Counted from the stretch's first letter, positions 32,115-57,900 are shown. The stretch is 64,000 bases of DNA from Gammaproteobacteria bacterium (GCA_965277715.1 OZ255836.1:1856001-1920000), one strand, 5' to 3'. Notes: generated by a model from the letters alone, not told the origin. Numbers and translations: made by a program.

Positions 32115-32390
32115 ATGATCACCTTAAACACACCACTCAAAGATATGGGCCGTAGCTTACGCGCGGCCCGCAAGCGCCGCTTCCCCAACGATACCCAGGC
32201 AGATTTCTCCCGCCGTATCAGCGTGAGCCGTTACACCTATCAAAAAATGGAACAAGGCAACACCTCGGTAACCTTTGGGCACTACTACCAAGCCGCTGTT
32301 TTGCTCGGCTGCGCGGAGCGTTTCAACACCTTCTTCGACCAGGTACAGCGTGGCCTGTTTGAAGAGTTTGCCGAGCTTCATGCTGAGTAA
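32115..32390 (+). CDS. XRE/HTH protein, HipB-like antitoxin
   Basis: LRAARKRR..TQADFSRRISVSRYTYQKMEQG; overlaps the hipA start. Confidence 0.85.
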   Translation: MITLNTPLKDMGRSLRAARKRRFPNDTQADFSRRISVSRYTYQKMEQGNTSVTFGHYYQAAVLLGCAERFNTFFDQVQRGLFEEFAELHAE

Positions 32391-33594
32391 ACCCTATACC
32401 TATTGGTGGGTCAGCCCAGGGGGAGCCCTGCATTCGGTAGCCGACGCCATTTTGCAAACCGATGGCCGTGGGCGCTTTGTGCGTTTCGCGCTGCGCTACC
32501 ACAGCGATTACCTTAACCTTGCCGATAGCCCGGCACTCAACCCCGTGCACTGCCCCAAAAGCATCGACACATTTGAATGGCCCGGCCCCGATATACCCGC
32601 CGTTTTGGATGAGGTTTTACCCGGCGTGTGGGAACGAAAACTCCTGCTGCGCTGGTGGCAACACCGGGGAGACCGTCGTGATGCCGATGACTTACACGCC
32701 GTATTGAGCCATCGCCAGCAGTTCCCTATCGGTGCCTGGACACTACTCGAAAAAGGCCACACCCCCGTTATCAGTCCGGGGCGGAATATAGAAGAACTGG
32801 GCGAGTTAACCACTGAGGCCGGGAAAGTAGCAATCGCCGCAGACCCCGAAGCCCATGCCCTGGATCGTTTGTTTAACGGTTCCAGCGTAGGTGGCGCCCG
32901 CCCCAAGACTCTGGTATTCGATCACAATAGCAAGCGTCACTGGCTGGCAAAGTTTTCGCGTAAAGAGGATGCTTTCAACCACGTGCGTGTGGAATATGCC
33001 TGCCTGCGTTTGGCTGCAATCTGCGGCCTATCAGTACCGCAGGTAAATATTTGTAACGCGGGCCGGGAAATTCTGTTAGTCGAACGCTTTGATACCAGCG
33101 CAAAGGGACGCTATGCAATCATATCCGCCAACGCACTGCTAAAAGATACCCGCAACCAGGCAGATAAACTGCACGCCAGCTATAACGACCTAATCCATCT
33201 GGTTCAAACGCATTCAGAACAGGTGAGTCAAGATTTAAAACAACTGTTCTCGCAAATGTTATTTAACAATTGCATCAACAATCGCGATGACCATTTGAGG
33301 AATTTTTCTTTTTTGCACACAGGTAGCGGCTGGCGGTTGTCGCCTGCCTACGACCTGGTACCGTCTGATTCGGCAGGTGCATACCCCATCCTGGACTTCA
33401 ACTACTCACCCGTGCTGCCCTCACTGGCACAGGCCACAAAAGTGGCCAGATACTTTCAGCTAAGCCCCTCAGAGGCTCGGGATACTGTGCAACAACTGAA
33501 GGATGGGCTGGCAGATTGGCAGGCACAGTTTTTACGTGATGAAGTGAGTAAAAGAGATATAAAGTTATTGTCCATGCTGTTTCATAACGCTTAA
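32380..33594 (+). CDS. hipA: HipA-family kinase toxin
   Basis: SVGGARPK, LAKF, VERFD, NRDDHLRNFSFL and LSPAYDL motifs; ATG 32380 overlaps the HTH gene. Confidence 0.92.
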   Translation: MLSKPYTYWWVSPGGALHSVADAILQTDGRGRFVRFALRYHSDYLNLADSPALNPVHCPKSIDTFEWPGPDIPAVLDEVLPGVWERKLLLRWWQHRGDRRDADDLHAVLSHRQQFPIGAWTLLEKGHTPVISPGRNIEELGELTTEAGKVAIAADPEAHALDRLFNGSSVGGARPKTLVFDHNSKRHWLAKFSRKEDAFNHVRVEYACLRLAAICGLSVPQVNICNAGREILLVERFDTSAKGRYAIISANALLKDTRNQADKLHASYNDLIHLVQTHSEQVSQDLKQLFSQMLFNNCINNRDDHLRNFSFLHTGSGWRLSPAYDLVPSDSAGAYPILDFNYSPVLPSLAQATKVARYFQLSPSEARDTVQQLKDGLADWQAQFLRDEVSKRDIKLLSMLFHNA

Positions 33595-39924: not shown

Positions 39925-41211
39925 ATGAGCAATAAACACATCGAATGGCCAGAGAGCCTGTGGAAAGCCACAGCGACACCACTACAGCCCCTACCCGCAT
40001 TGCCCGGCGATATGGAAACCGATTTATTGATAGTAGGTGCTGGTTACACGGGCCTATCGACCGCACTGCACGCGCTCGATAACACCTCAGATATTACCGT
40101 TATCGACCAGGCCCAGCCGGGCTGGGGGTGTTCCGGGCGCAACGGCGGCCAGGTAAACCCGCAGTGGAAGCCATCGGTAAACGCATTGCAGCAACTGTAT
40201 CCAGGCAAGGCGTTTGACCAATTTATCGCGACACTCGACGCCTCATCGCGTTTGGTATTCGACCTAATCGAACGCCACAATATCGACTGCCACACAGTCC
40301 GCAACGGCTGCCTTATTCCAACACGGGGGGCAAAAGGCCTGGCGTATTTAACACACTGGTCACAGCTTTGGCGGGAATACGGTGCCAATGTCACATTGCT
40401 CGATGCCAGGGCCAGCGCTGAATTGATCGGCACAAACGCCTACAGTGCCTGCATGTTCGACCGGCGTGGGGGTACGGTGCAGCCGTTATCCTATGCACGC
40501 GGGCTGGCGAAAGCGTGCCTGAAAAATAAGGTCAAACTATTCGCCGACACACAAGCCTTGTCCGTTACCCGCACAAACCAGATGTGGGTCGTAACAACCC
40601 GAAAAGGGCGGATCACATGCAAGCGCCTGCTTATCGCTACCAATGGTTACACCGATAAATTGTGGCCCGGCCTGGCGCAATCCATCATCCCGGTCGCCAG
40701 CATGTTAACCGCCACCAGACCACTCCCGCCGGATGTCGCCGATGGCATCTTGCCAGGGCGACAGCCCGTTGCCGAGTATGCCGGTGTGCCCGCTTATTAC
40801 CACATCGATGCATCCGGGCGTTTAGTCTTTGGTTGGCGGGGCACACGGCTGGGCGGTATAGGCGGGCTGAATACTGGCCACCTGAAAGCACAGGCAGTGA
40901 AAACCTTTCCGGCGTTGCAATCGGCGCAATGGGAGTACGACTGGGCGGGTTACGTCGGCGTCACCAGCCACCAACGCCCCATGCTGATCAGACTGGCCGA
41001 CAATGCCTATGCCGGTCTGGGCTACAACGGTCGCGGTATCACCATGGCGACGATGATGGGCAGACAACTGGCGCAGGCGTTAAACGGTGAAGATACCAGC
41101 GTACCGATCCAGGCATTGGAAAAAGTGCGCCTGCATTCGTTCTATCCACTGGGCGGCGCGGCGCGGATTGCCTACGGACATGCTTGTGATTTTATTGTTG
41201 ATCGATCCTGA
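39925..41211 (+). CDS. FAD-binding oxidoreductase (DAO family)
   Basis: GAGYTGLSTA, GCSGRNGGQ and GYNGRG motifs. Confidence 0.9.
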   Translation: MSNKHIEWPESLWKATATPLQPLPALPGDMETDLLIVGAGYTGLSTALHALDNTSDITVIDQAQPGWGCSGRNGGQVNPQWKPSVNALQQLYPGKAFDQFIATLDASSRLVFDLIERHNIDCHTVRNGCLIPTRGAKGLAYLTHWSQLWREYGANVTLLDARASAELIGTNAYSACMFDRRGGTVQPLSYARGLAKACLKNKVKLFADTQALSVTRTNQMWVVTTRKGRITCKRLLIATNGYTDKLWPGLAQSIIPVASMLTATRPLPPDVADGILPGRQPVAEYAGVPAYYHIDASGRLVFGWRGTRLGGIGGLNTGHLKAQAVKTFPALQSAQWEYDWAGYVGVTSHQRPMLIRLADNAYAGLGYNGRGITMATMMGRQLAQALNGEDTSVPIQALEKVRLHSFYPLGGAARIAYGHACDFIVDRS

Positions 41212-41220
41212 ACCAATCGC

Positions 41221-41430
41221 GGAATTTAGGTTCAACAACCCTCTTATCGCCCGGCCATGCCTCACCTTCCAGGCGCTTGCCAACGCACCTGAAAAAGACT
41301 CCAGATGCGGATTCAACGACGGCTTTTAAATCGAAAGCCCCCGCTGTCGAACACCCAGCGCGTCAGCTATACTGAATTACTCTCAAACACCCTGCAAAAA
41401 AACCACCCCGGAACCCGCTATGGACCAAAG
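41221..41430 (+). repeat. 210-bp direct repeat of the hsdM upstream region and first codons (other copy 49708-49917)
   Basis: Four mismatches seen by eye; ends at ATGGACCAAAG. Confidence 0.95.
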
Positions 41431-42045
41431 TAAAGGGTGTAACAGCAGATAAGCTCGATAGCTATTCCTGGTCGAGTTACCACGCTTACATCAACCAAGC
41501 CAAAGCACCAGAATGGTTGCATCGAGAGGCAACCTTATAGTGCACTCTGTGCTAAACAACGTTACGTTGCTTATAAGACATATGTTGGTCGAGGTATTGA
41601 TGAGGACATCAGCCGTTTTTATAACAAAGGCAATGTGGCGACGATACTGGGTGACAAATCCTTCAAGACGTATATTGCCGAAAACCGGGAGTCGATGCAC
41701 ATATCGGGGGACTTGTCCCGTATTGTGACGGACAAGCCAAACGGTGCAGCTATAGTCGATGCAGTGGCAGCGGTGTTTGGCGTTAACGCGAGTGATGTAC
41801 TTACGCGACAGCGGGGTAAACAACGGGCGAATCTGCCTCGTAAAGTAGCGATATATTGTTGTCAGCAATTGGGAGATATGCCGTTAAAAACGCTGGTTGA
41901 TATGTTTGGATATAGTCGTGTTAGTAGCCTTTCTCCTGCAATTGATTATGTAAAGAGTGGGCTGTCAGACGGCAGCTTGAAGGGCGTGTTTGAGCAGGTT
42001 TGCAAACGTTTGAAAGATATTAAATACGATTGACCCCTTTTTTTT
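41428..42045 (+). mobile_element. Y1/RAYT-like transposase element, copy A (5'-truncated)
   Basis: Near-identical to 47919-48533; ends TGACCCC plus T-tract; ORF 41635-42033. Confidence 0.9.
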
Positions 42046-42302
42046 AACGCGAGTGATGTACTTACACGACAGCGGGGGAGACAACGGGCGAATCTGCCTC
42101 GTAAAGTAGCGATATATTGTTGTCAGCAATTGGGAGATATGCCGTTAAAAACGCTGGTTGATATGTTTGGATATAGTCGTGTTAGTAGCCTTTCTCCTGC
42201 AACTGATTATGTAAAGAGTGGGCTGTCAGACGGCAGCTTGAAGGGCGTGTTTGAGCAGGTTTGCAACCGTTTGAAAAATATTAAATATGATTGACCCCTT
42301 TT
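42044..42302 (+). mobile_element. Y1/RAYT-like element, copy B (3' ~255 bp only)
   Basis: Tandem repeat of the gene's 3' end; TGACCCC at 42292-42298. Confidence 0.9.
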
Positions 42303-42320
42303 CTTTTTTATTTTTTCACG

Positions 42321-42512
42321 CTACTTTTTACTTTTTATTATCGAACTACGTCCTGTTACTCCGTAGTAACCAAGAAAAAGGCCGACAATAATAAATATTG
42401 TCGCAGTCGATTTATTCAAAAATTCTGGAAACTGCGGTAGCAACGTCTCAAGCCCCATGAACAACATAGCACTAGAAATCAGAAGAGCACATAACCTAAG
42501 AACAATTTTCAT
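42321..42512 (-). CDS. Small 2-TM protein, putative immunity protein
   Basis: 63 aa from ATG 42512; two hydrophobic helices; starts 10 bp after the toxin stop. Confidence 0.6.
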   Translation of the reverse strand: MKIVLRLCALLISSAMLFMGLETLLPQFPEFLNKSTATIFIIVGLFLGYYGVTGRSSIIKSKK

Positions 42513-42522
42513 TTTGCTATTC

Positions 42523-42966
42523 TCAAAAATTTGTACATTCGACTCGACAATAACCTTGGGCTCCAAGTTGAAAGCCAATAGCTCCAGCACCTAAAATCAG
42601 ACTTGCCGCATTGAACTTCCTAAATTGCGACAATGTTCTTAACTGTCTCTGGCCAGTCTGAAACTGTTTACTATTGCCATAGGAATTTCTGTTCCCTTGC
42701 TTTTGCAACTCGGTATCAAGAGCTTCTGCAACTTCATTACCCACGATCCCCGACAGACTTAAAGGATTTAAAGCACCAGCAGTTTCATACAGGGCACCGT
42801 AATTGTCCATAATACAAGTAGCAACACATTGCTTAAATTCATTTTTCCCAGAAATTTGATTACCAGTTGGCTGTTGAGACTGATTGCTATCACCATCCGC
42901 CCTCCAAGCACTCAACTCCGCATTAAACAAATGAGTAAACGCCGCAGTCTGTGCCCCATTTGCAAA
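42523..42966 (-). pseudogene. Orphan Rhs/polymorphic toxin C-terminal tip
   Basis: Begins at FANGAQTAAFTHLFN, a pre-toxin motif of Rhs proteins, followed by a variable domain with a Gly-rich hydrophobic end; no Rhs core upstream. Confidence 0.7.
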
Positions 42967-43368
42967 GATAGGTACGCTTGACGTGCATCCTCGTACCGAT
43001 GCCACTTTTCCTTTGATAAAACAATTAGTTAAACGTATCTTTTCCTTGATGCCATCCTGTTCTTGCGATTTTTTCCCTTGAGGCGGTTTTGGCACCGAGA
43101 CGACCAGCGCGGTACTTTTTTTCTGGATAGAAGCCGCCATCAGGTACAGCCAGGCCAACCGCCACAGACAGAGAACCTGCGGGGCATTAAGTTGAAGGGG
43201 GGATTGAGTCAGACACGTCATGCCCGATAGTTTACGCGATGATGGCACGATCACGAAGGCTTCTGTTTTTAGCGGCTTTTTTCTGAACCTTCAGGCCGCT
43301 AAAAGGCCGGGATTGCACCGGCCTTTATTGATTACTTGCACGGCTTCCAGAAAAGAAAAAAAGCAAAA

Positions 43369-43940
43369 AAAAGGGGTCAATCTTAAACAAAAGAGGTCAA
43401 TCCTATTTAATATTTTCAAAATAGTATAAATTTAATAGTGCACTCGGTGCTAAACAACGTTACGTTGCTTATAAGACATATGTTGGTCGAGGTATTGATG
43501 AGGACATTAGCCGTTTTTATAACAAAGGCAATGTGGCGACGATACTGGGTGACAAATCCTTCAAGACGTATATTGCCGAAAACCGGGAGTCGATGTACAT
43601 ATCGGGGGACTTGTCCCGTATTGTGGCGGACAAGCCAAAGGGTGCAGCTATAGTCGATGCAGTGGCAGCGGTGTTTGGCGTTAACGCGAGTGATGTATTT
43701 ACGCGACAGCGGGGGAGACAACGGGCGAATCTGCCTCGTAAAGTAGCGATATATTGTTGTCAGCAATTGGGGGATATGCCGTTAAAAACGCTGGTTGATA
43801 TGTTTGGGTATAGTCGTGTTAGTAGCCTTTCTCCTGCAATTGATTATGTAAAGAGTGGGCTGTCAGACGGCAGCTTGAAGGGCGTGTTTGAGCAGGTTTG
43901 CAACCGTTTGAAAAATATTAAATACGATTGACCCCTTTTC
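43369..43940 (+). mobile_element. Y1/RAYT-like element, copy C (both ends, internal deletion)
   Basis: Duplicated left end (GGGGTCA 43373, GAGGTCA 43393), jump at ~43435 to the position equivalent to ~48028, TGACCCC at 43929. Confidence 0.9.
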
Positions 43941-44596
43941 GTCTGGCTAAACAAATAATTCCTACCCAGCGACAAAGAGGAAAACCGATCCCCACTTGCT
44001 GGCCTGACTGTTGCGGATAAACTACCTGATTTTCAGGCGTATCGGGCATTGTCACAGTGGTGCCGTCAACCAATTTAACTGAACGCCCTTGCCAGTGCCA
44101 GTGACTGGCCGCTTCATTCGCCACACACTCGCCTGTACAACGGCCAAGCCCTGAGACGAGGGGGGTTGGCAGCCTTTGTCGTGCTTTACAATAACTCCCT
44201 GTCTACGTATTACTCACTGATAAACCTTCACTTAATCGCTGTACAGCGAGTGTGTTGACAGCTTGTTGGCAGGACTGATCTGCACTCATTGTTTGGTATA
44301 AAAACAGCGATAAGGTGTCTAGAGGAGGATAGCGACGCGCTCGAAAATCCGGTTGTAATTCTTCCAGTTTCGTAAGTAACTGAGAGGATGTCAGCAAGTG
44401 ATAAAAACTCAATGCATCCGAGGATTGAGCTCGGCTTTTGATGCGACGTTGAAGAATGTTGACTTTTACATTACTCTGCATGATGGCTGGTTCCTGTGGG
44501 ATAAAGGGTATTTGTGTTGGCAACAAATAACCTACCATAGAACCAGCTTTTTTTGTAATTACTTCAAATACTTACAGCTTAAGGAAGTGCCATTCG
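43941..44596 (-). mobile_element. IS4-family element fragment (frameshifted, 3'-truncated transposase)
   Basis: ATG 44481: R.YPPLDTLSLFL..SADQSCQQAV, YCKARQRLP, WQGRSVKLVDGTTVTMPDTPENQ; IR-like GAATGGCACTT near 44595. Confidence 0.85.
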
Positions 44597-44689
44597 GATC
44601 AAGGCAGTTATTTCCTATATTTCTTGCTGGAAACCACTGTTTTTATCCGTATTAGTCGTTGTATGGTGAATAATAAGCCTGACCCCCTT

Positions 44690-44731
44690 GCTTTCGAGAT
44701 TGTGCGCTTACTGTAAGGGCGACTTGTACAC
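44690..44731 (-). pseudogene. intI: Integron integrase N-terminal remnant
   Basis: AAGGA RBS, GTG-YKSP, then in shifted frames YSKRTI and ES, matching the IntI N-terminus KSPF...YSxRTIxxY; divergent from attI; cut at GGGGGTCA. Confidence 0.6.
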
Positions 44732-44741
44732 GTATAAATCC

Positions 44742-44770
44742 TTGTAAAGCAGAGAGTGTTATATGATAAT
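44742..44770 (+). promoter_or_regulatory. Putative cassette promoter Pc
   Basis: TTGTAA-N17-GATAAT pointing into the array. Confidence 0.5.
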
Positions 44771-44913
44771 CCAAAACCAAAATTTTAGGGAGTCGTTCCA
44801 GCATTTTTTTGTCTGTTATTTGCGATTTTTGTAGGGTTTTGTCATATTAATCAATGTTTTAGTGTGTCTTTGTGAGCTCAGTCTCGCAAAATTATCGCGA
44901 TTCCACATAATAT

Positions 44914-44953
44914 TGTTATCGAGGATTCGTTCCTCGATAACAGGCTGTTAGCT
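44914..44953 (+). other. Putative attI site
   Basis: CGATAAC-N5-GTTAGCT simple site; GTTAGCT is complementary to AGCTAAC at the end of cassette 1. Confidence 0.7.
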
Positions 44954-44987
44954 GTAATCAAGTCAAATACCGATTCATGGTTTAACT

Positions 44988-45839
44988 ATGGAAAGATCAG
45001 CAATTTATTTAGATAGTAATGTTGTAATCGATACAATTGAGGGACGTGATGACGAGCTAATGGGATTATTGTTCCGCAGCTTATATCTTGGGCCTTATTG
45101 CTACCCTTTTTCTGCAGAGTTGGTTGGAGAAATTACTGACTTGGATAGAGAAGAGCGCAACCAAGCTCGGTTAATGTATGTAGAAGACCTTAGTAAAAGA
45201 GTTTATTTTGAAAACTCTTTTACTAATATCGGTTTTAGGACTGTGCGCCCGCAAGAGGTTTTTGCAACGATTAATGACGTTGATATCGGTATCGATTTTA
45301 ACGATACCTTTGCAAATATGATTTCATTTGACCAAGTTTTAGAGCTGCGAAAAGCTTACAACTTAGATCCTGACTCACTAAACAATATGAAACCACGTGA
45401 GGCTCTCACCTACATAGATAATGCGCTTGAAAACTATGAATACGAAGTCGCAGAAGGAGCACCGAATCCTCCAAGAAGTATGAAGGATATGATATCTACG
45501 GTGTCAGCTATCTGTGAGGAAAGCTTTAAAAATGTTGGAGAAGGGCTCGGTACAAAAGCCGAGCATGATGCGAGTAAAAAGGATTTGGTAATGTTTTTTT
45601 CTTTGCTAGATAGCTTTGGATATTGGGGCGATCCAAGAAAGAAATATAAAAGGGGTTCCAGGTTGGTAGATGCACAACATGCTCTAGTTGGTTCTTACTT
45701 TAGCGCAATTGTTTCTAGAGATCCTCACTTTGTCCGTAAAGCAGAAGCTGCTTACGAGTATATGGGTATTACTACAAAGGCTTATACTACGGATGAGTTC
45801 AAACAACATTTATTTGGCATTTTAAGTGGCAGCAGCTAA
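44988..45839 (+). CDS. Integron cassette 1: PIN-like domain protein
   Basis: IYLDSNV near the N-terminus and DAQH...IVSRD near the C-terminus; the stop codon lies in the attC inverse core. Confidence 0.7.
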   Translation: MERSAIYLDSNVVIDTIEGRDDELMGLLFRSLYLGPYCYPFSAELVGEITDLDREERNQARLMYVEDLSKRVYFENSFTNIGFRTVRPQEVFATINDVDIGIDFNDTFANMISFDQVLELRKAYNLDPDSLNNMKPREALTYIDNALENYEYEVAEGAPNPPRSMKDMISTVSAICEESFKNVGEGLGTKAEHDASKKDLVMFFSLLDSFGYWGDPRKKYKRGSRLVDAQHALVGSYFSAIVSRDPHFVRKAEAAYEYMGITTKAYTTDEFKQHLFGILSGSS

Positions 45840-45947
45840 CAAAGCTGTCATAGGGACATTTTTTGCTTCGCTCCGTTTTGGGGTGGCTTCGCCACTTTAC
45901 CCCAAAACTCCACTACACAAAAAATGCCCCATACAGAGGCGTTAAGG
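45834..45947 (+). other. attC site 1
   Basis: AGCTAAC...imperfect palindrome (gttttgggg/ccccaaaac)...GTTAAGG. Confidence 0.9.
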
Positions 45948-46254
45948 TACACCAGCACTAAAAGCATTTAATCCCAAAAGTAAATAGCAGGCCCAAAGAA
46001 ATAAATATTAAAATACGCTCAAAATTGCATGCCACTGGTTTTGTTCTTGCTGCCAAACTTGAGCAAAATATAAGCATCAACTTTATGGTTTCAGTTGTGG
46101 TTGCCATTAAGAGAGTATAATTTTCGTGGCAAGTTTAACGCTTTTACTTTGTTCGTTCACGTAAGTTCAACGCGTAAGTAAAGCAAACACTCTTGCTATT
46201 ACACAAACTAAGCTGGCTTCGTCACACTCATTTTGTCGGTGTTCACGGGTGCCA

Positions 46255-46363
46255 CCTTAACCAAGCCATCGTGGCCGACCTAGGTAAACTGTCGTCTTTT
46301 TATGCACGCTTCGCGGCAAAAAAGCCGCCAGTTTACCTAGGCGCCACATGGCAGGCGTTAGAA
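46255..46363 (+). other. attC site 2
   Basis: CCTTAAC...cctaggtaaactg/cagtttacctagg...GTTAGAA. Confidence 0.92.
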
Positions 46364-46376
46364 CTCAGAGTACCCC

Positions 46377-46766
46377 ATGAATACATATCAAATAATAGAC
46401 ACTATCGAGAAACTGGAAACAAGGGTCAATAGCTATTGGAACTTCTACACCGTTGTAGTTCTGGCGGTTGTTGGTTGGGTCATAACTGAAGGGCTAGATT
46501 ACAGACAGTCAATAACAGTGTTCATTTCAAATTTTATTTTTTTTCTAATGAACTTGGTGCTAATTTTCGTTACTACTAAACAAATACTGGCATTTGAAGA
46601 AGATCTGAAGTTAATGATTGTTAACGAGCTTGCTGAAGAGTCTTTCATAAGAAAGTTTTTCAGCAAACGGAGGTTTTGGAAAAGATTGGAGTTTTCTTTT
46701 GTTCTTCATATTTCTGTGGATATAGCGCTATTTTATATGGTTCTTAAGTCCGGAGGGATTTTGTAG
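46377..46766 (+). CDS. Integron cassette 3: small membrane protein
   Basis: 129 aa, about 3 TM segments, between attC2 and attC3. Confidence 0.75.
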   Translation: MNTYQIIDTIEKLETRVNSYWNFYTVVVLAVVGWVITEGLDYRQSITVFISNFIFFLMNLVLIFVTTKQILAFEEDLKLMIVNELAEESFIRKFFSKRRFWKRLEFSFVLHISVDIALFYMVLKSGGIL

Positions 46767-46841
46767 CTAACTCTCTGAACCAGCAGGCCTGGTGTAAGAT
46801 TGTTGGTAAGAAATCGCTAATATGTTTATATTTAAATTCCA

Positions 46842-46950
46842 TTCTAACCAAGCCATCGTGCCGACCTACATAAACTGTCTTCTTTATTTGCACGCTTCGC
46901 GGCAAAAAAGCTGCCAGTTTATTCCGGCTGGCACATGGGCGGCGTTATAA
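46842..46950 (+). other. attC site 3
   Basis: TTCTAAC...GTTATAA; close relative of attC2. Confidence 0.92.
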
Positions 46951-46956
46951 CGGTGT

Positions 46957-47280
46957 ATGAAGTATTCAACATTACTAGAATGGGCAGCAAAACCGGTAAC
47001 CGATGAAAATAAACAGTTCATTGATGAATGGTTTTCACGGCTCGATTCAAAGGCAGAGCTTGATGATCTAGCTATTTGGCTAGCTAAATCATTTGTTGCT
47101 GGCGAGGTCAGGTATGACATTGCAAATGTATTGTTTAATCAAATTATGCCGGTTGTCGGGTTTGAAGAGGCACCCAAAATATTTTGGATATTTTATAGCG
47201 CATTTGAAGACTTTGAATTTTCAGAAAAACCTGATGAAGATGCTGTGGGTAGAATTCGGAGTGAACTTGCAAGGTTATAA
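46957..47280 (+). CDS. Integron cassette 4: hypothetical protein
   Basis: 107-aa acidic protein; ATG 7 bp after the core site, stop within TTATAAC. Confidence 0.75.
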   Translation: MKYSTLLEWAAKPVTDENKQFIDEWFSRLDSKAELDDLAIWLAKSFVAGEVRYDIANVLFNQIMPVVGFEEAPKIFWIFYSAFEDFEFSEKPDEDAVGRIRSELARL

Positions 47281-47385
47281 CAAACGGCTCAAATTGACCT
47301 ACACTGCGTTGCTCGTTTTGTGCTTTTCCGCTACGCTAGCACAAAACAATCAACTCCGTTCCGGCAACTTAGCCGGGCGTTAGGG
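47275..47385 (+). other. attC site 4
   Basis: TTATAAC...gttttgtgct/agcacaaaac...GTTAGGG. Confidence 0.9.
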
Positions 47386-47416
47386 TTTGGAACAAAAAAC
47401 TAGTAGACGAGAAATA

Positions 47417-47496
47417 ATGACCAATAAGAAGAAAGTTCAAATTGAAAGAGAGCGCCCTTTTTCACCACACCATATGTTACTTGGTGCTGCAAGACT
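47417..47496 (+). pseudogene. Integron cassette 5 ORF, truncated
   Basis: MTNKKKVQIERERPFSPHHMLLGAAR runs into the AAAAGGGGTCA end; no attC follows. Confidence 0.65.
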
Positions 47497-48533
47497 AAAA
47501 GGGGTCAATCTTATTTAATATTTTCAAAATAGTATAAATTTAAACGATACCTAGACCTACTCGAATACAATACGAAAATGCCTACTACCACGTTATGAAT
47601 CGTGGCAAAGCCAGACAGACCATCTTTCATGGCGAAATTTACTACCAGGCATTTCTACAAACGCTCGATGAAGCACATAAACGCTTTGATGCCTGCATCC
47701 ACGCTTACTGTTTGATGAGTAATCATTATCATCTATTGATCGAAACCCCTCGTGCTAATCTGGATCGCATCATGCGACATATCAATGGTATCTACACACA
47801 ACGCTACAACCTTAGACGCACGGATGGGCCTCTTTTTCGCGGTCGTTATAAAGCGATTATTGTGGATGCAGACGACTACTTATTACCCTTAAGCCGTTAC
47901 ATTCATCGTAACCCAATAGAAGTAAAGGGTGTAACAGCGGATAAGCTCGATACCTATTCCTGGTCGAGTTACCACGCTTACATCAACCAAGCCAAAGCAC
48001 CGGAATGGTTGTATCGAGAGGCAACCTATAGTGCACTCGGTGCTAAACAACGTTACGTTGCTTATAAGACATATGTTGGTCGAGGTATTGATGAGGACAT
48101 TAGCCGTTTTTATAACAAAGGCAATGTGGCGACGATACTGGGTGACAAATCCTTCAAGACGTATATTGCCGAAAACCGGGAGTCGATGCACATATCGGGG
48201 GACTTGTCCCGTATTGTGACGGACAAGCCAAAGGGTGCAGCTATAGTCGATGCAGTGGCAGCGGTGTTTGGCGTTAACGCGAGTGATGTACTTACGCGAC
48301 AGCGGGGGAGACAACGGGCGAATCTGCCTCGTAAAGTAGCGATATATTGTTGTCAGCAATTGGGAGATATGCCGTTAAAAACGCTGGTTGATATATTTGG
48401 ATATAGTCGTGTTAGTAGCCTTTCTCCTGCAACTGATTATGTAAAGAGTGGGCTGTCAGACGGCAGCTTGAAGGGCGTGTTTGAGCAGGTTTGCAACCGT
48501 TTGAAAAATATTAAATACGATTGACCCCTTTTT
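47497..48533 (+). mobile_element. Y1/RAYT-like element, copy D (complete, ~33-bp terminal inverted repeats)
   Basis: Left aaaaggggtcaatcttatttaatattttcaaa; right tttgaaaaatattaaatacgattgacccctttt. Confidence 0.9.
47547..48524 (+). CDS. Y1 HUH transposase (REP-associated tyrosine transposase-like) with C-terminal HTH
   Basis: PRPTRIQYENAYYHVMNRG, YCLMSNHYHLL (HUH), GPLFRGRY and RYIHRNP (Tyr) motifs. The expected start codon reads ATA at 47547; first ATG is 47595. Confidence 0.9.
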   Translation: MPRPTRIQYENAYYHVMNRGKARQTIFHGEIYYQAFLQTLDEAHKRFDACIHAYCLMSNHYHLLIETPRANLDRIMRHINGIYTQRYNLRRTDGPLFRGRYKAIIVDADDYLLPLSRYIHRNPIEVKGVTADKLDTYSWSSYHAYINQAKAPEWLYREATYSALGAKQRYVAYKTYVGRGIDEDISRFYNKGNVATILGDKSFKTYIAENRESMHISGDLSRIVTDKPKGAAIVDAVAAVFGVNASDVLTRQRGRQRANLPRKVAIYCCQQLGDMPLKTLVDIFGYSRVSSLSPATDYVKSGLSDGSLKGVFEQVCNRLKNIKYD

Positions 48534-48580
48534 GGAGTCAAAAACGAGCGTGCGTCTTTTACCTGGTAGGGCTTGGCTTC

Positions 48581-49906: not shown

Positions 49907-51586
49907 ATGGACCAAAGCCATGAGCAGCAATTTCTCCACGATTTAGAAAAAAAACTGTGGACCAGCGCCAACAAACTACTCCCCTCACTCGACGCCAGCC
50001 AATACAAACACGTACTGCTTGGCCTGATATTTATCAAATACGTATCAGACGCCTTTGACCTCCGGCGTGCCGGGCTAAAAGACCAACTGCAAGACCCGGA
50101 TCACGACTACTACTTAGACCCAGAAGATTTTGGTGGCCGTGAGAGCCAGGCGTATAAAACCGAAATTCAAACCGAGCTGGAAGTGCGGGACTATTACCGG
50201 GAAACCAACACCTTCTGGGTGCCAGCCCCCGCACGCTGGAAATTTTTACAAAACCAAAACAAAACCGTCATCACCGGCGAACTTGAAATTGGCCAGGGCA
50301 GGCAAAAGAAAAAAATCCGCAGCGTGGGCCAGCTTATCGACAACGCCCTGGAAACCATCGAGGCCGATAACCCCAAACTCAACGGCGTGCTCAACAAACG
50401 CTATACCCAACTGCAAATCGACCAGGCCAAATTGGGCGAATTGATCGACCTTATCGCCACCATTCCCTTCACCCACGCCAGCCTCAACGCCAAAGACATC
50501 CTCGGCCATGTCTACGAATACATGCTTGGCCAGTTCGCCCTGGCCGAGGGTAAAAAAGGCGGCCAGTTCTACACACCAAAATCCATCGTCAGCCTTATTG
50601 TACAAATGCTCGAACCCTTCAAAGGCCGCGTCTACGACCCCGCCATGGGTTCCGGTGGTTTCTTTGTGCAATCAGAAAACTTCATCACCGCCCACAAAGG
50701 CACCATGGGCAACGTCAGCATCTACGGGCAGGAAGCCAACCACACCACCTGGCAACTGGCCGCCATGAACATGGCAATAAGAGGCATCGACTTCAACTTT
50801 GGTAAACAACCCGCCAGCACCTACACCAACGACCAACACCCCGACTTACGCGCCGACTTCGTTATGGCCAACCCACCGTTCAACATGAAAGAGTGGGACG
50901 CCGGTGTCAGCGACGACGACCCGCGTTGGCAATACGGCACACCACCATCCGGCAACGCCAACTTCGCCTGGCTGCAACACATGCTCTACCACACCGCACC
51001 CAACGGCAGCGTCGGCCTATTGTTAGCCAACGGTTCCATGAGCTCCAACAGTTCAGGTGAAGGCGATATACGCAAGACACTGATCGAAGCAGACCTGATC
51101 GAGTGCATGGTCGCCCTGCCCGGCCAGTTATTTACCAATACCCAAATCCCCGCCTGTATCTGGTTCTTAACCAGGAATAAAAATAAGCGCACCAGTGCCG
51201 CAGGCAGAAAACTACGCACCCGCAAAGGTGAAATATTATTTATCGATGCCCGCAACCTCGGGTACATGAAAGACCGCGTACTGCGCGACTTCACCCAAGA
51301 TGACCTAAACCAAGTGACAGAGACATTCCACCACTGGCAGATAGGTGAGGGATATGCTGATATTGCGGGGTTTTGCCGCAGCGCCGGTTTAGAAGAAATT
51401 CAAAAACACGATTATGTACTCACCCCTGGGCGTTATGTTGGTGCCGCTGCCGAAGAAGATGATGGTGAACCCTTTGCCGATAAAATGGCGCGGTTAACCG
51501 CGACTTTAAAAATTCAGTTTGAGGATTCTGATCGTTTGGAAGCTGAGATTAAAAAGAACTTGGCGGGGTTGGGTTTCGATGTCTGA
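49907..51586 (+). CDS. hsdM: Type I RM methyltransferase subunit M
   Basis: GQFYTP, YDPAMGSGG, ANPPFN and LTPGRYVG motifs. Confidence 0.97.
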   Translation: MDQSHEQQFLHDLEKKLWTSANKLLPSLDASQYKHVLLGLIFIKYVSDAFDLRRAGLKDQLQDPDHDYYLDPEDFGGRESQAYKTEIQTELEVRDYYRETNTFWVPAPARWKFLQNQNKTVITGELEIGQGRQKKKIRSVGQLIDNALETIEADNPKLNGVLNKRYTQLQIDQAKLGELIDLIATIPFTHASLNAKDILGHVYEYMLGQFALAEGKKGGQFYTPKSIVSLIVQMLEPFKGRVYDPAMGSGGFFVQSENFITAHKGTMGNVSIYGQEANHTTWQLAAMNMAIRGIDFNFGKQPASTYTNDQHPDLRADFVMANPPFNMKEWDAGVSDDDPRWQYGTPPSGNANFAWLQHMLYHTAPNGSVGLLLANGSMSSNSSGEGDIRKTLIEADLIECMVALPGQLFTNTQIPACIWFLTRNKNKRTSAAGRKLRTRKGEILFIDARNLGYMKDRVLRDFTQDDLNQVTETFHHWQIGEGYADIAGFCRSAGLEEIQKHDYVLTPGRYVGAAAEEDDGEPFADKMARLTATLKIQFEDSDRLEAEIKKNLAGLGFDV

Positions 51587-52940
51587 TTGGCCAATTGTTC
51601 AATTGAATGAGATTGTTGAAATAACCTCAAGCAAACGAGTTAAAAGAGTGGATTATGTTGAAGATGGCGTGCCATTTTTTAGATCGAAAGAAGTAATAGA
51701 ACGCTCCAAGGGTAACGATATATCCACAAAGTTATTCATCAAAGAAGATCACTTTCAAAAAATCGAAGAAAAATTTGGAGCCCCTTTAGTGGGGGATATT
51801 TTATTAACTTCTGTTGGCACTTTGGGTGTTCCATACCAAGTACAAACGAGAGATAGGTTCTATTTTAAAGATGGAAACCTAACTTGGTTCAGAAATTTTA
51901 GTGAAAGAGTGAATCCCAAGTTTTTATTTTACTGGCTGACATCTCCTATAGCTAAGCGAAAGTTTGATGAAATCACGATTGGCTCGACTCAAAAAGCGCT
52001 TACTATTGTTGCTCTAAAGTCTTTAGACCTGCAGCTGCCTCCAATAAACATTCAGGATGGTATTGTTAAAATTTTAGATGCATTGAATGAAACGCTTACT
52101 AATAACCGCCAAACTAACCAAACCCTCGAACATATCGCCCAAGCCATCTTTAAAAGCTGGTTTGTCGATTTCGAACCCACTCGCGCCAAAATCGCCGCCA
52201 AACAAACAAGTCAAGACCCTGAACGCGCTGCTATGGCGGCCATCAGTGGCAAGGCGTTAGACGAACTTGATCAACTCAACCCAAAACAACTGGAACAACT
52301 CCAAGCCACTGCTGCTTTGTTTCCTGATGCGTTCGTTGATTCTGAGTTGGGTGAAATACCGGAGGGGTGGGATGCCTCAACGCTTGGTGAACATTTCAAC
52401 GTAGTTATGGGGCAATCCCCAACAGGCGATACTTATAATGAAGATGGTCAGGGCATGTTATTTTTTCAAGGACGTAGGGATTTTGGTTTTAGATACCCAA
52501 TGCCGCGAGTTTATACAACTAAACCAAAACGGCTGGCTAAGGCCGGGGATACGCTAATAAGTGTCAGAGCCCCAGTAGGTGACAGGAATATGGCCGCTCA
52601 AGAATGTTGTCTTGGTAGAGGAGTTGCCAGTATTAGGCATAAGTCAGAAGCAAGAAGCTTCACTTATGCATTTATTGGACACATAGAGAAGAACCTAAGC
52701 GATAGTGGTTCTGACGGCACGGTATTCAACTCTATCAATAAAAACGAACTAGGGGCCGTAGGATTTGTCGCACCACGTAGTAATTTATTGAATTTTTTTG
52801 AAGATAAGATTAAATCAATAGACCAACACATTGAAGTTAATTCGATAGAGATCAGGGTTCTTAAAAAGTTGCGTGATACGTTATTACCAAAACTCCTTTC
52901 TGGGAAATTTGCCATACAATCACCCCAAACAGAATTATAG
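51579..52940 (+). CDS. hsdS: Type I RM specificity subunit S
   Basis: Two TRDs; IAQAIFKSWFVDF, SELGEIPEGW and LRDTLLPKLLSG motifs; ATG 51579 overlaps hsdM. Confidence 0.96.
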   Translation: MSDWPIVQLNEIVEITSSKRVKRVDYVEDGVPFFRSKEVIERSKGNDISTKLFIKEDHFQKIEEKFGAPLVGDILLTSVGTLGVPYQVQTRDRFYFKDGNLTWFRNFSERVNPKFLFYWLTSPIAKRKFDEITIGSTQKALTIVALKSLDLQLPPINIQDGIVKILDALNETLTNNRQTNQTLEHIAQAIFKSWFVDFEPTRAKIAAKQTSQDPERAAMAAISGKALDELDQLNPKQLEQLQATAALFPDAFVDSELGEIPEGWDASTLGEHFNVVMGQSPTGDTYNEDGQGMLFFQGRRDFGFRYPMPRVYTTKPKRLAKAGDTLISVRAPVGDRNMAAQECCLGRGVASIRHKSEARSFTYAFIGHIEKNLSDSGSDGTVFNSINKNELGAVGFVAPRSNLLNFFEDKIKSIDQHIEVNSIEIRVLKKLRDTLLPKLLSGKFAIQSPQTEL

Positions 52941-53417: not shown

Positions 53418-54182
53418 TCAAAACTTCCCATTATCATTCTTCCACTCACCTCGCGCAGGAATACCCTCAACTGTATTCCAATGCTCAACAAGTCGCTTTT
53501 TAGAAACGCGAAAAAGATCATAAAAAGCCGTGTGAACCCCACCACGGAACCCCTCACTAACAGCAAGCACAAAACACCCCTCTGCAAACACACGGTGATT
53601 TTGCGAATACTCGACTCTCAAAATACCCCCATCCATCGCTTCCAACGCCAACCGCAGCGCAGGTAAACCATCGGCAACGTGTGGATCATGCTGAATATAA
53701 CCTTCCTCACCGATATAACTTTCGAGTTTCTCAAGCCTGCGATTGATAAGCACCTCATCAACAAACGATCTTACTATTTCCCGATTGTCCTCGGTTCTAT
53801 CAAGATCGGTTACCTCAACCGGGCCATCGACCATAGTGTGGCCCGATGGGCCAGGACCCAACCTCGGTTGAATATTATCCCAATGCTCCACGGCCAAGCC
53901 ATCCTCAAACCTGAAGACCTCAAAACCGACATTCGAACGATCAAAATTATATTCCGTATGGGCGAACACATAATCGCCATCCCCAAAAACCCGAACGATG
54001 TTAACCGTTGGGTTCGTTTTCGACAGGCGCTTAAACAGCGCCGCCAAACCTTCGCTACCCTCATGCGTTTGAGGGTTGTGTTGAATATATTTATCCTCGT
54101 TGACAACCGCCACCGTTGTCGCATCACCCGTTTCGATGCCTTTCAGTAAATTGCAAATTTGTTCTTTTCTTAATGCAGTCAT
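53418..54182 (-). CDS. Tandem SnoaL/NTF2-like domain protein
   Basis: Two repeats of YIQHNP/YIQHDP...FR....EHW. Confidence 0.88.
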   Translation of the reverse strand: MTALRKEQICNLLKGIETGDATTVAVVNEDKYIQHNPQTHEGSEGLAALFKRLSKTNPTVNIVRVFGDGDYVFAHTEYNFDRSNVGFEVFRFEDGLAVEHWDNIQPRLGPGPSGHTMVDGPVEVTDLDRTEDNREIVRSFVDEVLINRRLEKLESYIGEEGYIQHDPHVADGLPALRLALEAMDGGILRVEYSQNHRVFAEGCFVLAVSEGFRGGVHTAFYDLFRVSKKRLVEHWNTVEGIPARGEWKNDNGKF

Positions 54183-54246
54183 GGATAGTCAAGCCCCGGT
54201 TACTATTGCACACTAACGCCACTGGTACGCCTACCAGCGTATTTTG

Positions 54247-54633
54247 TCACGTTACCTCATGCCCAAAGGTAAGCTTGTTACCATCCGGGTCCATAACAGA
54301 AAACTCCTTCATGCCCCAGGTTTGCTCAACGGGGTGAATGACGACACATGGATAACCCTCCACAGTATTTGTCACCAATCCGCGCTTTACAAACTTTTGA
54401 TACAGCGTATCAACATCATCGACACGGACATAATTCAGGCTTCCGAATGCACCATCATTCGAGTGGGAAGACAAGTGAACAAGCCCCCCTTCTCTCCCAA
54501 TCAGCGAATATCTGGACATAAACGCCTCGGGATTAGGGTCTGGCGCGACTATTACAGTGAAATCCAGAACCGCTGTATAGAAAGCCAATGAGGTTTTTAA
54601 ATTGCTGCATTTAATAAAAGGTTCGATAGGCAT
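54247..54633 (-). CDS. VOC/glyoxalase (bleomycin-resistance-like) protein
   Basis: FYTAVLDF, RVDDVD and QTWGMKEFSVMDPDGNKLTFG motifs. Confidence 0.9.
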   Translation of the reverse strand: MPIEPFIKCSNLKTSLAFYTAVLDFTVIVAPDPNPEAFMSRYSLIGREGGLVHLSSHSNDGAFGSLNYVRVDDVDTLYQKFVKRGLVTNTVEGYPCVVIHPVEQTWGMKEFSVMDPDGNKLTFGHEVT

Positions 54634-54974: not shown

Positions 54975-57900
54975 ATGATCACCGAAGACCAACTGGAACA
55001 ACTCTGCCTCGATTGGTTTCAACTCACCGGCTATAACACGCTCTGCGGTTATGACATCGCCCCCGATGGCGATAACCCGGAACGCAGCGATTACCGTCAA
55101 ATCATTTTGCATAATCGCCTGCTTGACCAATTGGCAATCATTAATCCCCATATCCCCAGCGCCACACTGGAACAGGTGGCTTTCCAAATCGCCAAACCAG
55201 AAACCCCTGTTCTGATTAACAATAACAAAATCTTTCACCAACTATTGCTGCAAGGGGTAAAGGTAGACTTTAAGCAGAATGGCAAGGCAAAGACCGACTA
55301 TGTGCAGTTGGTGGATTTTGCCACGGTAGACAATAACCAGTTTTTAGTGGTGAACCAATACACCATCACCGGCAGCAAAGGTAACCGCCGCCCGGATGTG
55401 ATTGTATTTATTAACGGCCTACCACTGGCCGTGTTAGAACTGAAAAACCCCGCCGATAGCAATGCCGATATCTGGTCTGCCTATCAGCAGTTGCAAACCT
55501 ATAAAGAGGAAATACCCGGTTTATTTGCGTTTAATGAAGCCCTGGTGGTGAGTGATGGCTTAAATGCGCGGGTCGGTTCGCTCACCGCCAATAAGGAGCG
55601 TTTTTTGCCCTGGCGGGTGGTCAATAACGAAAACGATAAACCCCTGTTTGAATACTTTCTGGAAACTTTGGTAAAAGGCTTTTTTAAACCCGCGCTGTTT
55701 TTAGATTACATTCGCCATTTTGTGCTGTTTGAACAGGACGGCGATACGCTGATTAAAAAAATTGCCGGTTACCATCAATTCCATGCCGTGCGTGAAGCGG
55801 TAAAAGCCACGGTGATTGCCGCACAGCGGCCCGAGCAGGGCACGGTTGCCCAGCCCAGAGCGAATTATGCCAATAAAGTCGAACCGGGTTCCGGTAAAGC
55901 TGGCGTGATATGGCATACCCAGGGGTCTGGTAAATCGATCTCGATGGTGTGCTATGCCGGTAAATTATTGGCACAGCCTGAAATGAATAACCCCACCATT
56001 GTAGTGGTGACCGACCGCAATGATTTAGACGGCCAGCTATATAACACCTTTAGTATGGCGACAGACGCGCTAAAACAAACACCCATACAAGCCGGTGGCA
56101 GGGATGAACTGCGTGCGGTATTAGCGGCGCGCCAATCCGGCGGTATTATTTTTACCACGGTGCAAAAATTTGCTCTCCGCAAAGATGAGCAAGGGCGTGA
56201 TGAAGCCACCCACCCGGTACTGAGCACCCGCCATAATATTGTGGTGGTGAGTGATGAAGCCCACCGCAGTCAATACGGTGATAAAGCCAAGCTCAACGCA
56301 AAAACCGGGCAGTACACTTTTGGTTACTCCAAACACCTGCGCGATGCCTTGCCTGAAGCCTCATTTATTGGTTTTACCGGCACACCAATCGACGCGGCGG
56401 ATAAAGACACCCGCGCAGTATTTGGCGACTATGTTTCCATCTATGATATTCAGGATGCCGTCGAAGACGGCGCCACCGTACCGATCTATTACGAATCCCG
56501 TTTAGCCAAGCTGGATATCCATGCCGCCGATATTGAGGCGTTAAACGATGAAGTCGAGGAGGTGATCGAAGACGAGGAGGATGTCGCCACCCGTGAAAGC
56601 ACTAAATCGAAATGGGCGGCACTGGAAAAGCTGGTGGGCAGCGAGCCGCGTATGCAGCAAGTGGGTAAAGATTTGGTCGATCATTTTGAAAGCCGCACCG
56701 CCACCATGCCCGGCAAGGGCATGATTGTGTGCATGAGCCGCGAAATCTGTGTGGATATGTACGCGGCCATCGTCGCGATTAAACCCGAATGGCACGACCC
56801 GAATCCCGCCGGTGGCGCGATCAAGATTGTGATGACCGGTTCCGCCGCCGATAAAGAAAAACTGCAACCGCATATTTATACTAAAGACACCCGAAAGCGG
56901 TTTGAAAAACGCTTTAAAGACATCGACGACCCGCTGCAATTGGTGATTGTGCGCGATATGTGGCTGACCGGTTTTGATGCGCCGGGCTGCCATACGATGT
57001 ATATCGATAAGCCCATGAAAGGCCATAATTTAATGCAGGCTATCGCCCGGGTAAACCGGGTGTTTAAAGACAAGCCCGGTGGTTTGGTGGTGGACTATAT
57101 CGGTATCGCCAATGAACTAAAACACGCGCTCAAGCGCTATACCAACGCTAACGGTAGAGGTGCGCCAACCATCGACACCCGCGAAGCGTTTGCGTTATTG
57201 AGGGAGAATATCGATAAATTGCACGCCATGATGCACGGCTGTGATTACAGTGATTATGCAACCCATGCACTGCAATTATTACCCCGGGTAATGAACCATA
57301 TCCTGCATTTACAAAACCCGGGCAATGGCGAGCTGGACGGGAAGAAACGCTTCCTCGATGTAATGGCCAGCATTCGCTCGGCGTTTACTCTGTGCAGCAC
57401 ACTCGATGAGGCCAGCGCCTACTCCAAAGAAATCGCATTTTGGGGTTATGTGAAAAATGCCATCACTAAATTCACCACTATCGATAAGCGCCGCACCGAT
57501 GAAGAAAAGAATTCGGCCCTTAAGCAAATAATCGACAACGCCATTATCGCCGAAGGTGTGGACGATATTTTTCAGCTAGTGGGGTTAGACAAGCCGAATG
57601 TTGGTTTGCTTTCACCCGAATTTCTTGAGGATGTAGCCAGGCTGAAAGAAAAAAACCTGGCGGTTAATTTATTGGAACGTTTACTGCGTGATGAAGTGAA
57701 GGCGCGGATGAAAACGGATGTGGTCTCTGAAAAGAAATACTCCGAGCGCATCATGGAAACGCTGCGCAAATACCACAACCGTGCCATAGAGACAGCGCAA
57801 GTGATTGAGGAGTTGATTCAGATGGCAAAGGACATGGCAGCAGATGCCGAACTCGCCCGGCGCTCTGGTTTAAATACCGATGAATTGGCGTTTTATCGTG

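Follow-up and report, generated by a model that had tools for sequence, protein, structure and literature searches.

Why does one spot in a bacterial chromosome hold several pieces of the same transposase element, all in one orientation, with apparently unrelated genes lying between them? The question is raised by a 64,000-nucleotide stretch of DNA from a Gammaproteobacteria bacterium (GCA_965277715.1 OZ255836.1:1856001-1920000; hereafter the window). An earlier note on this DNA, made from the sequence alone, had described Y1/HUH transposase elements with inverted ends (GGGGTCA/TGACCCC) between 41,428 and 48,533, alternating with cargo, and had proposed that an unknown HUH subgroup cuts at this motif and captures or deletes adjacent DNA to build a variable defence or competition locus. 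Our analysis assigns the element to a class that is already described, the TIRtrons, in which a transposase gene of the TIRYT type lies between terminal inverted repeats (TIRs). On the chromosome the locus is a variable spot with an FAD oxidoreductase gene to one side and a gene for an EamA transporter to the other, and we think it probable, though by no means secure, that TIRtrons have piled up there through an end-directed activity that left DNA bracketed by direct copies. This reading draws on the family assignment, on ends that are conserved among relatives, on copies with other flanks in the same sequencing runs, and on strain differences located at the ends.

The element and its copies in the window

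The full-length copy, which we call copy D, ends in 33-nt arms that are 91% complementary and separated by 970 nt (inverted-repeat finding), and the TGA stop of its open reading frame (ORF), at 48522-48524, falls within the TGACCCC of the right end, both as previously read. Copy A consists of the last 613 nt of D plus one extra T near 41535 that produces a +1 frameshift (copy alignment). Copy B comprises the final 259 nt including the right end, begins 2 nt past the right end of copy A, and has copy D as its nearest match, with 3 differences. Copy C is a 47-nt left end fused to the equivalent of 48029-48532, and this internal deletion of about 485 nt means that the entire catalytic Y1 domain is missing. 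The four same-orientation copies reported before are thus one full and three truncated ones, and the start given for the third, 43369, proved to be a short stub of a left end, copy C itself starting at 43389 (Table 1).

The sequence TTGACCCCTTTT is common to all four right ends, beyond which the sequences diverge, and AAAAGRGGTCAAT is common to both left ends and the stub. The four pieces lie within 7 kb and are 96-99% alike. Allowing at most one mismatch, the 11-mer AAGGGGTCAAT has 8 matches in the 64 kb against 0.99 expected, a number that none of 100 shuffles reached, and seven of the eight lie within 42029-48530; no dispersed repeat of the element end was found across the other 57 kb of the window. 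Copies A (41635-42033) and C (43533-43931) still hold open frames of 132 codons with a GTG start, which comprise only a DnaA-like helix-turn-helix (HTH) tail. A promoter and terminator scan of copy D gave scores at or below shuffle level.

Table 1 Coordinates of the TIRtron copies and of the DNA lying between them in the window.
Feature	Coordinates	Strand	Basis or correspondence
TIRtron copy A, 5'-side truncated, right end intact	41428-42041	+	equals 47920-48532 of D
TIRtron copy B	42044-42302	+	equals 48274-48532 of D
Small ORF, 89 aa, two hydrophobic stretches, directly after toxin tip	42321-42590	-	position
Orphan Rhs-type C-terminal toxin tip	42523-43290	-	protein similarity
Left-end stub, 17 nt, 3 nt ahead of the left end of copy C	43369-43385	+	repeat finding
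TIRtron copy C	43389-43939	+	repeat finding and copy alignment
IS4-family element remnant	43940-44598	-	NCBIfam fragment matches, run contigs
Miniature TIR unit (probable)	44599-44694	.	loose contig ends at 44599 and 44693-44695
Repeated non-coding unit	44695-44950	.	run contigs
Cassette array, ORFs 44988-45839, 46377-46766, 46957-47280 and 47417-47518	44951-47496	+	repeats, run contigs
TIRtron copy D, full length, 1036 bp	47497-48532	+	repeat finding
Left end and right end of copy D	47497-47529; 48500-48532	+	33-nt inverted arms
ORF with Y1 HUH domain and DnaA-domain-IV-like HTH	47547-48524	+	Pfam, motif reading

The encoded transposase and its class

The ORF of copy D matches Pfam Y1_Tnp (E 2.3e-15), and both the HUH motif (HYH) and the Y-x3-NP motif (RYIHRNP) can be read from its translation. 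In an alignment of D with 19 relatives (20 rows), H60, H62, Y118, N122 and P123 are invariant. At the C-terminus, the score for Bac_DnaA_C falls just short of the Pfam cut-off of 31.5 bits in D (31.0) but exceeds it in the ORF of copy A (34.7), and a profile of the 20 sequences searched against solved structures returned six matches, all of them to DnaA domain IV (E 1e-14 to 1e-6, including 1J1V); a single-sequence search among solved structures gave two weak and irrelevant matches. The NCBIfam models REP_Tyr_transpos (53.6 bits, cut-off 80) and transpos_IS200 (25.2 bits, cut-off 55) both score below their cut-offs.

The initial codon of copy D is ATA, at a column where at least 90% of the 20 aligned rows have M. 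Four public runs (X1, X3, X4 and X6, from three studies and labelled sponge metagenomes) were compared with the window at the level of contigs only, and in each of them the sole contig covering 47549 has a G there, which makes the start ATG; this same contig carries three additional bases after 47810 relative to copy D. Hence the copy that had been called complete is, in its start codon, a variant of the contig version. Copy D is probably crippled by its ATA start, and any current activity would come from other copies.

The element is a TIRtron encoding a TIRYT, equivalent to TnpA_Y1 subclass 2.1.2 and to RAYT group 1. TIRtrons were named by Di Nocera, De Gregorio & Rocco 2013 for RAYT-like genes within inverted repeats, and the available text of that paper describes ends that overlap the 3' end of the gene as well as solo, dimeric or clustered TIR families (PMC3733652). 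A common motif, GGGG[AT][CG]A[CG] or GGGGWSAS, is given for the repeats that flank TIRYT genes in the accessible parts of two sources (PMC6006769, PMC3733652). In the sections available from Quentin et al. 2018, Y1 proteins with a Bac_DnaA_C-like tail form TnpA_Y1 subclass 2.1.2, subclass 2.1 is taken to be what Di Nocera et al. 2013 called TIRYTs, and 291 of 292 sequences that Bertels et al. 2017 assigned to RAYT group 1 are placed in subclass 2.1 (PMC6006769). RAYT group 1 is described, in the portion of the source at hand, as larger than any other RAYT group and as one of the most insertion sequence (IS)-like, with 6.3% near-identical duplicates and 1.2% of its members plasmid-borne (PMC5581495). 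A search for literature since 2018 on RAYT cargo or TIRs returned nothing relevant beyond Quentin 2018 (PMC6006769).

These sources bear on the novelty that had been claimed for the element. The earlier note took Y1 and RAYT enzymes to act on single-stranded hairpins and not on TIRs, and so proposed an undescribed HUH subgroup, unlike all known Y1 enzymes. The anatomy is indeed as described there, and our literature search found no functional study of this class. However, TIRYTs and TIRtrons were described in 2013 and reclassified in 2017-2018, so that the available text of the published work already has the class together with its TIRs, its DnaA-like tail and the GGGGWSAS motif (PMC3733652, PMC6006769), and the ends of many relatives resemble inverted hairpins of repetitive extragenic palindromic (REP) sequences rather than classical TIRs, with a GTCAA...TTGAC palindrome in 39 of 68. 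By the measure the note had set itself, a match with an already described group, the novelty of the class is refuted, and we consider an undescribed subgroup very unlikely.

Conserved ends among relatives

The prediction that GGGGTCA/TGACCCC ends would be conserved in homologues was borne out. Species-representative genomes contain at least 572 relatives, and the best 80 of these (35-73% identity), from Gammaproteobacteria, Desulfobacterota, Nitrospirota and others, were analysed. Exact GGGGTCA about 50 nt before the start together with TGACCCC at the stop, 1010-1217 nt apart, occurs in 40 of the 80 loci. A motif-free test for an inverted repeat between the upstream and stop regions was applied to 66 loci, after exclusion of 7 with short flanks and 7 with cut genes, and the repeat beat all 30 shuffles in 60 of them; in 39 of these 60 the matched arm contains GGGGWSA.

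The palindromes mentioned above were counted by eye as GTCAA-N3-9-TTGAC in the left-end 20-mers. Ends that carry them fold better than shuffles in L033 (z -3.7, with none of 200 shuffles as good), L009 (z -2.6) and L027 (z -1.8). Taken together, palindromes and folding indicate that what are called TIRs amount, for much of the family, to REP-like hairpins in inverted arrangement that bear a GGGG tag, which softens the contrast between hairpins and TIRs on which the earlier claim was built.

TIRYTs are widespread in one bacterial class, being present in 103 of 151 sampled genomes. A plasmid search returned relatives in 4 of 72,556 records, none of which covers 80% of the protein.

Junctions, further copies and strain differences in the runs

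Contigs of the runs bridge three junctions of the locus: that between the right end of copy B and the cargo (X1, X4, X6), that between the cassette ORF and the left end of copy D (X1, X3), and that between the right end of copy D and the EamA gene (X1 and X3, and also X4 with differences). In organism A all three are bridged without differences. For the A|B junction no bridging contig is present among those shown, and X1 contains a rival junction, at single-copy depth, in which a right end is followed by T8 and a left end. These two points are what could be said for a mis-assembly in which one repeat had been joined several times. Against it, every copy is marked by private differences and by a junction of its own, and the three junctions are each bridged by contigs of two or three runs, from three studies overall; an assembly artefact is accordingly highly improbable, and we put it last among the explanations.

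Breakpoints at the element ends are seen directly. The IS4 remnant is cut on its 3' side, at 43940-43943, by the right end of copy C, and in all four runs a contig extends past the cut into other IS4 sequence; this IS is repeated in the runs. At the other end of the cassette array, the 33-codon ORF that starts at 47417 reads on into copy D's left end, where its stop codon lies at 47516-47518. Both meeting points had been noticed before, and both stand.

Contigs also depart from the window at 47497 and at 48534 into other flanks, which shows that further copies of the element exist. The element contig of X1 has a k-mer depth of 1720.6, compared with 206-279 for its neighbours (6-8x), which suggests repetition, although depth is not a copy number. 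A search for other copies in JGI metagenome contigs with a 24-nt end pattern gave no matches. An empty site in relatives was also sought; for the flanking oxidoreductase, genome contigs yielded only 3 loci, the best of them 61% identical, and no close relative.

The strains differ at the ends of the element. At the junction of the right end with EamA, X4 carries an additional 17 bases in which the end is repeated, so that TGACCCCTTTT occurs twice, and this stutter begins ACCCCTTTT. In X4 and X6 the left flank is joined at 41246 straight to an element end, while X1 and X3 continue as the window does. The 181 nt between the conserved flank and copy A (41247-41427) lie on another contig in X4 and X6. 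A frame across them reads ...FKSK...RNPLW..., a faint likeness to a RAYT motif without Pfam or nucleotide support. The candidate that 41202-41537 is a 5' relic of a TIRYT gene was rejected, since it has no Pfam support and 41212-41432 scores 18 against the 5' part of D, the shuffle mean being 18.0.

Within the element, an X1 contig passes from 47917 straight to 48254, so that 336 nt (47918-48253) between the Y1 and HTH domains are lost in frame. The left breakpoint of this loss lies at most 3 nt from the 5' breakpoint of copy A, which may point to a recurrent break site; the coincidence is statistically not strong. In the cassette array, a 3917-nt contig of X4 matches 44922-45944 and then continues with 2894 nt unlike the window, departing at the GTTA of an attC-like site in the fashion of a cassette array. 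The interval 45945-47422 is uncovered in X4 and X6, and as contigs cannot prove absence we did not use this as evidence.

End-anchored duplications and cargo in relatives

Similar arrangements recur among the 80 loci. Two or more tandem heads, 8-45 nt apart, occur in 18 of them, when about 1.5 pairs would be expected by random placement. The longest stutter seen is in L013 (1024-1103), where six tandem TGACCCC heads with 12-18 nt spacing follow the right end. Longer duplications are anchored in the same way: in L022 and L071 a left end plus 29 or 85 codons stands immediately ahead of the full copy, and a comparable left-end partial duplication, of 129 codons, is found in G028 (C3). Within 3 kb, 7 of the 80 loci have additional partial copies in direct orientation and 1 has them inverted, and 16 of 68 loci contain more copies of their own 20-nt end.

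Two loci have genes enclosed by one full and one truncated copy. The order in L028 is a full copy, a TacA/GNAT toxin pair (TacAT) and a 641-nt 5'-truncated copy that has its own right end and a stutter, the two copies being identical at 636 of 641 positions. In L027 a MazE/MazF pair occupies the equivalent place between a full and a 5'-truncated copy. Just past the truncated copy that closes the TacAT cargo of L028 lies a ParE/ParD pair (6064-6631), so that two toxin-antitoxin pairs flank that right end.

Five genomes were searched for clusters, having been picked because they have clusters. In the unselected sample of 151 genomes, 3 close direct pairs occur among 150 listed matches, for a rough expectation of about 0.5, and one of the three sits in the centre genome, which was itself chosen for having one. 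With so few pairs, one of them preselected, the support from this sample is modest.

How the array may have arisen

A TIRtron unit measures about 1 kb and consists of a RAYT-like Y1 TIRYT gene between inverted ends starting AAGGGGTCA. The DnaA-like HTH tail of the protein may bind the double-stranded ends, and the Y1 domain may make a single-strand nick at the GGGGTCA head. Inversion of the ends puts the recognised sequence on one strand at the left end and on the other strand at the right end, unlike in IS608, and for this reason the one-strand "peel and paste" of the IS608 type offers no simple fit. Nick-primed copying, or insertion beside an existing end, could then produce end-anchored duplications as short as 12-nt stutters or as long as several hundred bases. 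The DNA alongside would be left bracketed by direct copies, here the Rhs tip with a putative immunity gene and the IS4 remnant with the cassette array, and subsequent deletions would have trimmed copies A, B and C. The partial duplications anchored at ends in relatives, together with the two toxin-antitoxin cases, make capture by end-directed activity plausible, though unproven. What had been said earlier of truncations and breakpoints at the motif ends, and of cargo between full and truncated copies, thus holds as observation, while cutting at the motif and active capture are what we infer.

Several results weigh against this pile-up by end-directed activity. Each copy has private base changes, and copies A-D differ by 1-3%, which indicates that the events are not very recent. 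Copy D itself, with its ATA start, lacks 3 nt present in the runs' contig. The window's own ends do not fold above shuffles (z 0.5 to -1.4), the depth in X1 cannot be read as a copy number, and the direct pairs in the unselected genomes are few. Variable regions often contain toxin-antitoxin genes and toxin tips, and the "cargo" may therefore consist of pre-existing neighbours. Finally, our literature search found no functional study of the TIRYT class, and cleavage at the motif is therefore an extrapolation.

Some of these points are shared by a passive explanation, in which the TIRYT gene is domesticated or dead and the array formed by ordinary homologous or illegitimate recombination among repeats (TIRtron, IS4, attC). 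The ATA start and the divergence of the copies would fit such decay, as would the finding that the IS4 element and 44695-44950 are also repeated in the runs. The available text of two papers points the same way: class 2 genes have low copy number and low between-copy similarity (PMC6006769), and RAYTs mostly resemble housekeeping genes in their behaviour (PMC5581495). However, recombination among repeats does not readily account for breakpoints exactly at element ends, found in the four window copies and in other strains, for the recurrence of the same end-anchored duplications in unrelated phyla, or for the excess of direct over inverted extra copies. The IS-like character of RAYT group 1 also argues against it, as the excerpted source reports near-identical duplicates and some plasmid copies (PMC5581495). 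We regard passive decay as a possible but unlikely account, and retain the pile-up by end-directed activity as the preferred one.

A stronger version would make TIRtrons active HUH transposons: each would start copying itself from a nick at either of its ends and would insert next to ends already in place. We find this doubtful, and give it less weight than passive decay. If it were true, the elements would build direct arrays as well as composites of a full copy, cargo and a truncated copy, able to move toxin-antitoxin pairs, toxin tips and cassettes; gene capture of the IS26 or ISCR type would have an equivalent among Y1 enzymes, and the tandem stutters would be the footprint of the enzyme. 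In either case the locus offers natural material, namely four nested or truncated copies, a probable miniature derivative, a strain polymorphism at the right end, and DNA between direct copies. What it supplies is not a new class but substrates and predictions with which the TIRYT class could be put to a first biochemical test.

DNA between the copies

Of the cargo named in the earlier note, the Rhs tip and the IS4 fragment are supported and the integron is not. The last 132 residues of the Rhs tip (124-255) are 68% identical to the final 136 residues of P0001, a protein of 793 aa that carries RHS_repeat (22.3 bits, cut-off 22), and the window has no Rhs core, which makes the tip an orphan. 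The ORF that follows it is, by its position only, a putative immunity gene, and had no family match in Pfam or PADLOC. The IS4 remnant retains N-terminal transposase pieces at 44203-44538 and 43918-44124 (NCBIfam). Run contigs terminate near 44592-44598; a search of plasmid records for the IS4 boundaries gave no match.

The lone TGACCCC end reported at 44680 survives in a different form. As a bare 7-mer it is at chance level, with 4 more copies outside the region, yet the wider sequence 44669-44689 agrees with D's left end in 15 of 18 positions, which only 1 of 5580 control windows equals. It forms the right end, CCTGACCCCC, of the unit 44599-44694, which the run contigs show to be separate and repeated in its own right and which is probably a miniature TIR derivative. 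In X4 and X6, AAAAGGGG precedes the TCAAGG of this unit and restores an GGGGTCAAGG head; in the window, the end of the IS4 element occupies the exact place of that left head.

Next to it, the repeated non-coding unit terminates in a hairpin with an 11-bp stem followed by GTTAGC, which is attC- or attI-like, and its other copies have a 36-nt insertion after 44715 (X1, X3, X4). In the cassette array each ORF is followed by an imperfect palindrome ending GTTRRRY. An integrase gene, intI, had been placed here with its end near 44690. None of three candidate peptides from 44608-44947 matches Pfam even at E 10, and no integrase domain was found among the 36 ORFs of the window, so we describe an attC-type cassette array without visible integrase. 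A PADLOC defence search matched none of six proteins, and the label of a defence locus is, like the integrase, not supported. An Rfam search returned a single sub-threshold match to a microRNA.

The surroundings contain further systems. Directly past EamA lies a type I restriction-modification system (hsdM 49907-51583, hsdS 51519-52937, hsdR 54975-58157), with SnoaL-like and glyoxalase genes on the opposite strand at 53418-54630, between hsdS and hsdR. About 8 kb upstream of the cluster, at 32275-33591, is an ORF of toxin-antitoxin type with a HipA_C kinase domain (E 1.8e-45).

Comparison with known systems

The closest likeness is to the TIRtron as portrayed in the available text of its description: a Y1 gene between long inverted ends, without GTAG REPs and with a GGGGTCA head, a left end about 50 nt before the start and a right end overlapping the 3' end of the gene, and end copies both solo and clustered. 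The published text at hand does not describe clustered, truncated copies with DNA between them, as found in the window (PMC3733652). Against the motif GGGGWSAS, the window head GGGGTCAA fits 7 of 8 positions, the eighth being A and not S. With subclass 2.1.2 and RAYT group 1 the element shares the Y-x3-NP motif, a length of about 325 aa, the C-terminal Bac_DnaA_C-like HTH, a patchy distribution over phyla and the lack of GTAG REPs. Copies of this group are reportedly few and dissimilar within a genome, going by the parts of the literature available, whereas the pieces in the window are 96-99% alike and more exist in the runs.

In the REPtron of E. coli (TnpA_REP/RAYT with REP-BIME or REPIN), a Y1 gene lies between inverted cognate short repeats that also form gene-less miniatures. 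The element here resembles it in having a Y1 gene between inverted repeat copies. It differs from the REPtrons of RAYT groups 2 and 3 in its GGGGTCA ends, the lack of a GTAG tag and the additional HTH domain; REP_Tyr_transpos stays below its cut-off, and highly repeated flanking REPs are not seen in the window.

IS608, of the IS200/IS605 family, has a Y1 enzyme and differing subterminal hairpins on one strand, has no TIRs, and is cut twice on the same strand. The Y1 HUH core, the size of about 1 kb and the lack of a visible target-site duplication are common to both. The window element, in contrast, has TIRs, Y-x3-NP instead of Y-x3-Q, and no significant hairpin at its ends.

Arrays of IS26 and one-ended capture by IS91/ISCR likewise interleave direct copies with captured DNA. 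The locus is like them, by analogy only, in its truncated copies that keep one end and in the DNA between direct copies; the enzymes, DDE in IS26 and Y2 HUH in IS91/ISCR, are unrelated or merely distantly related to the TIRYT.

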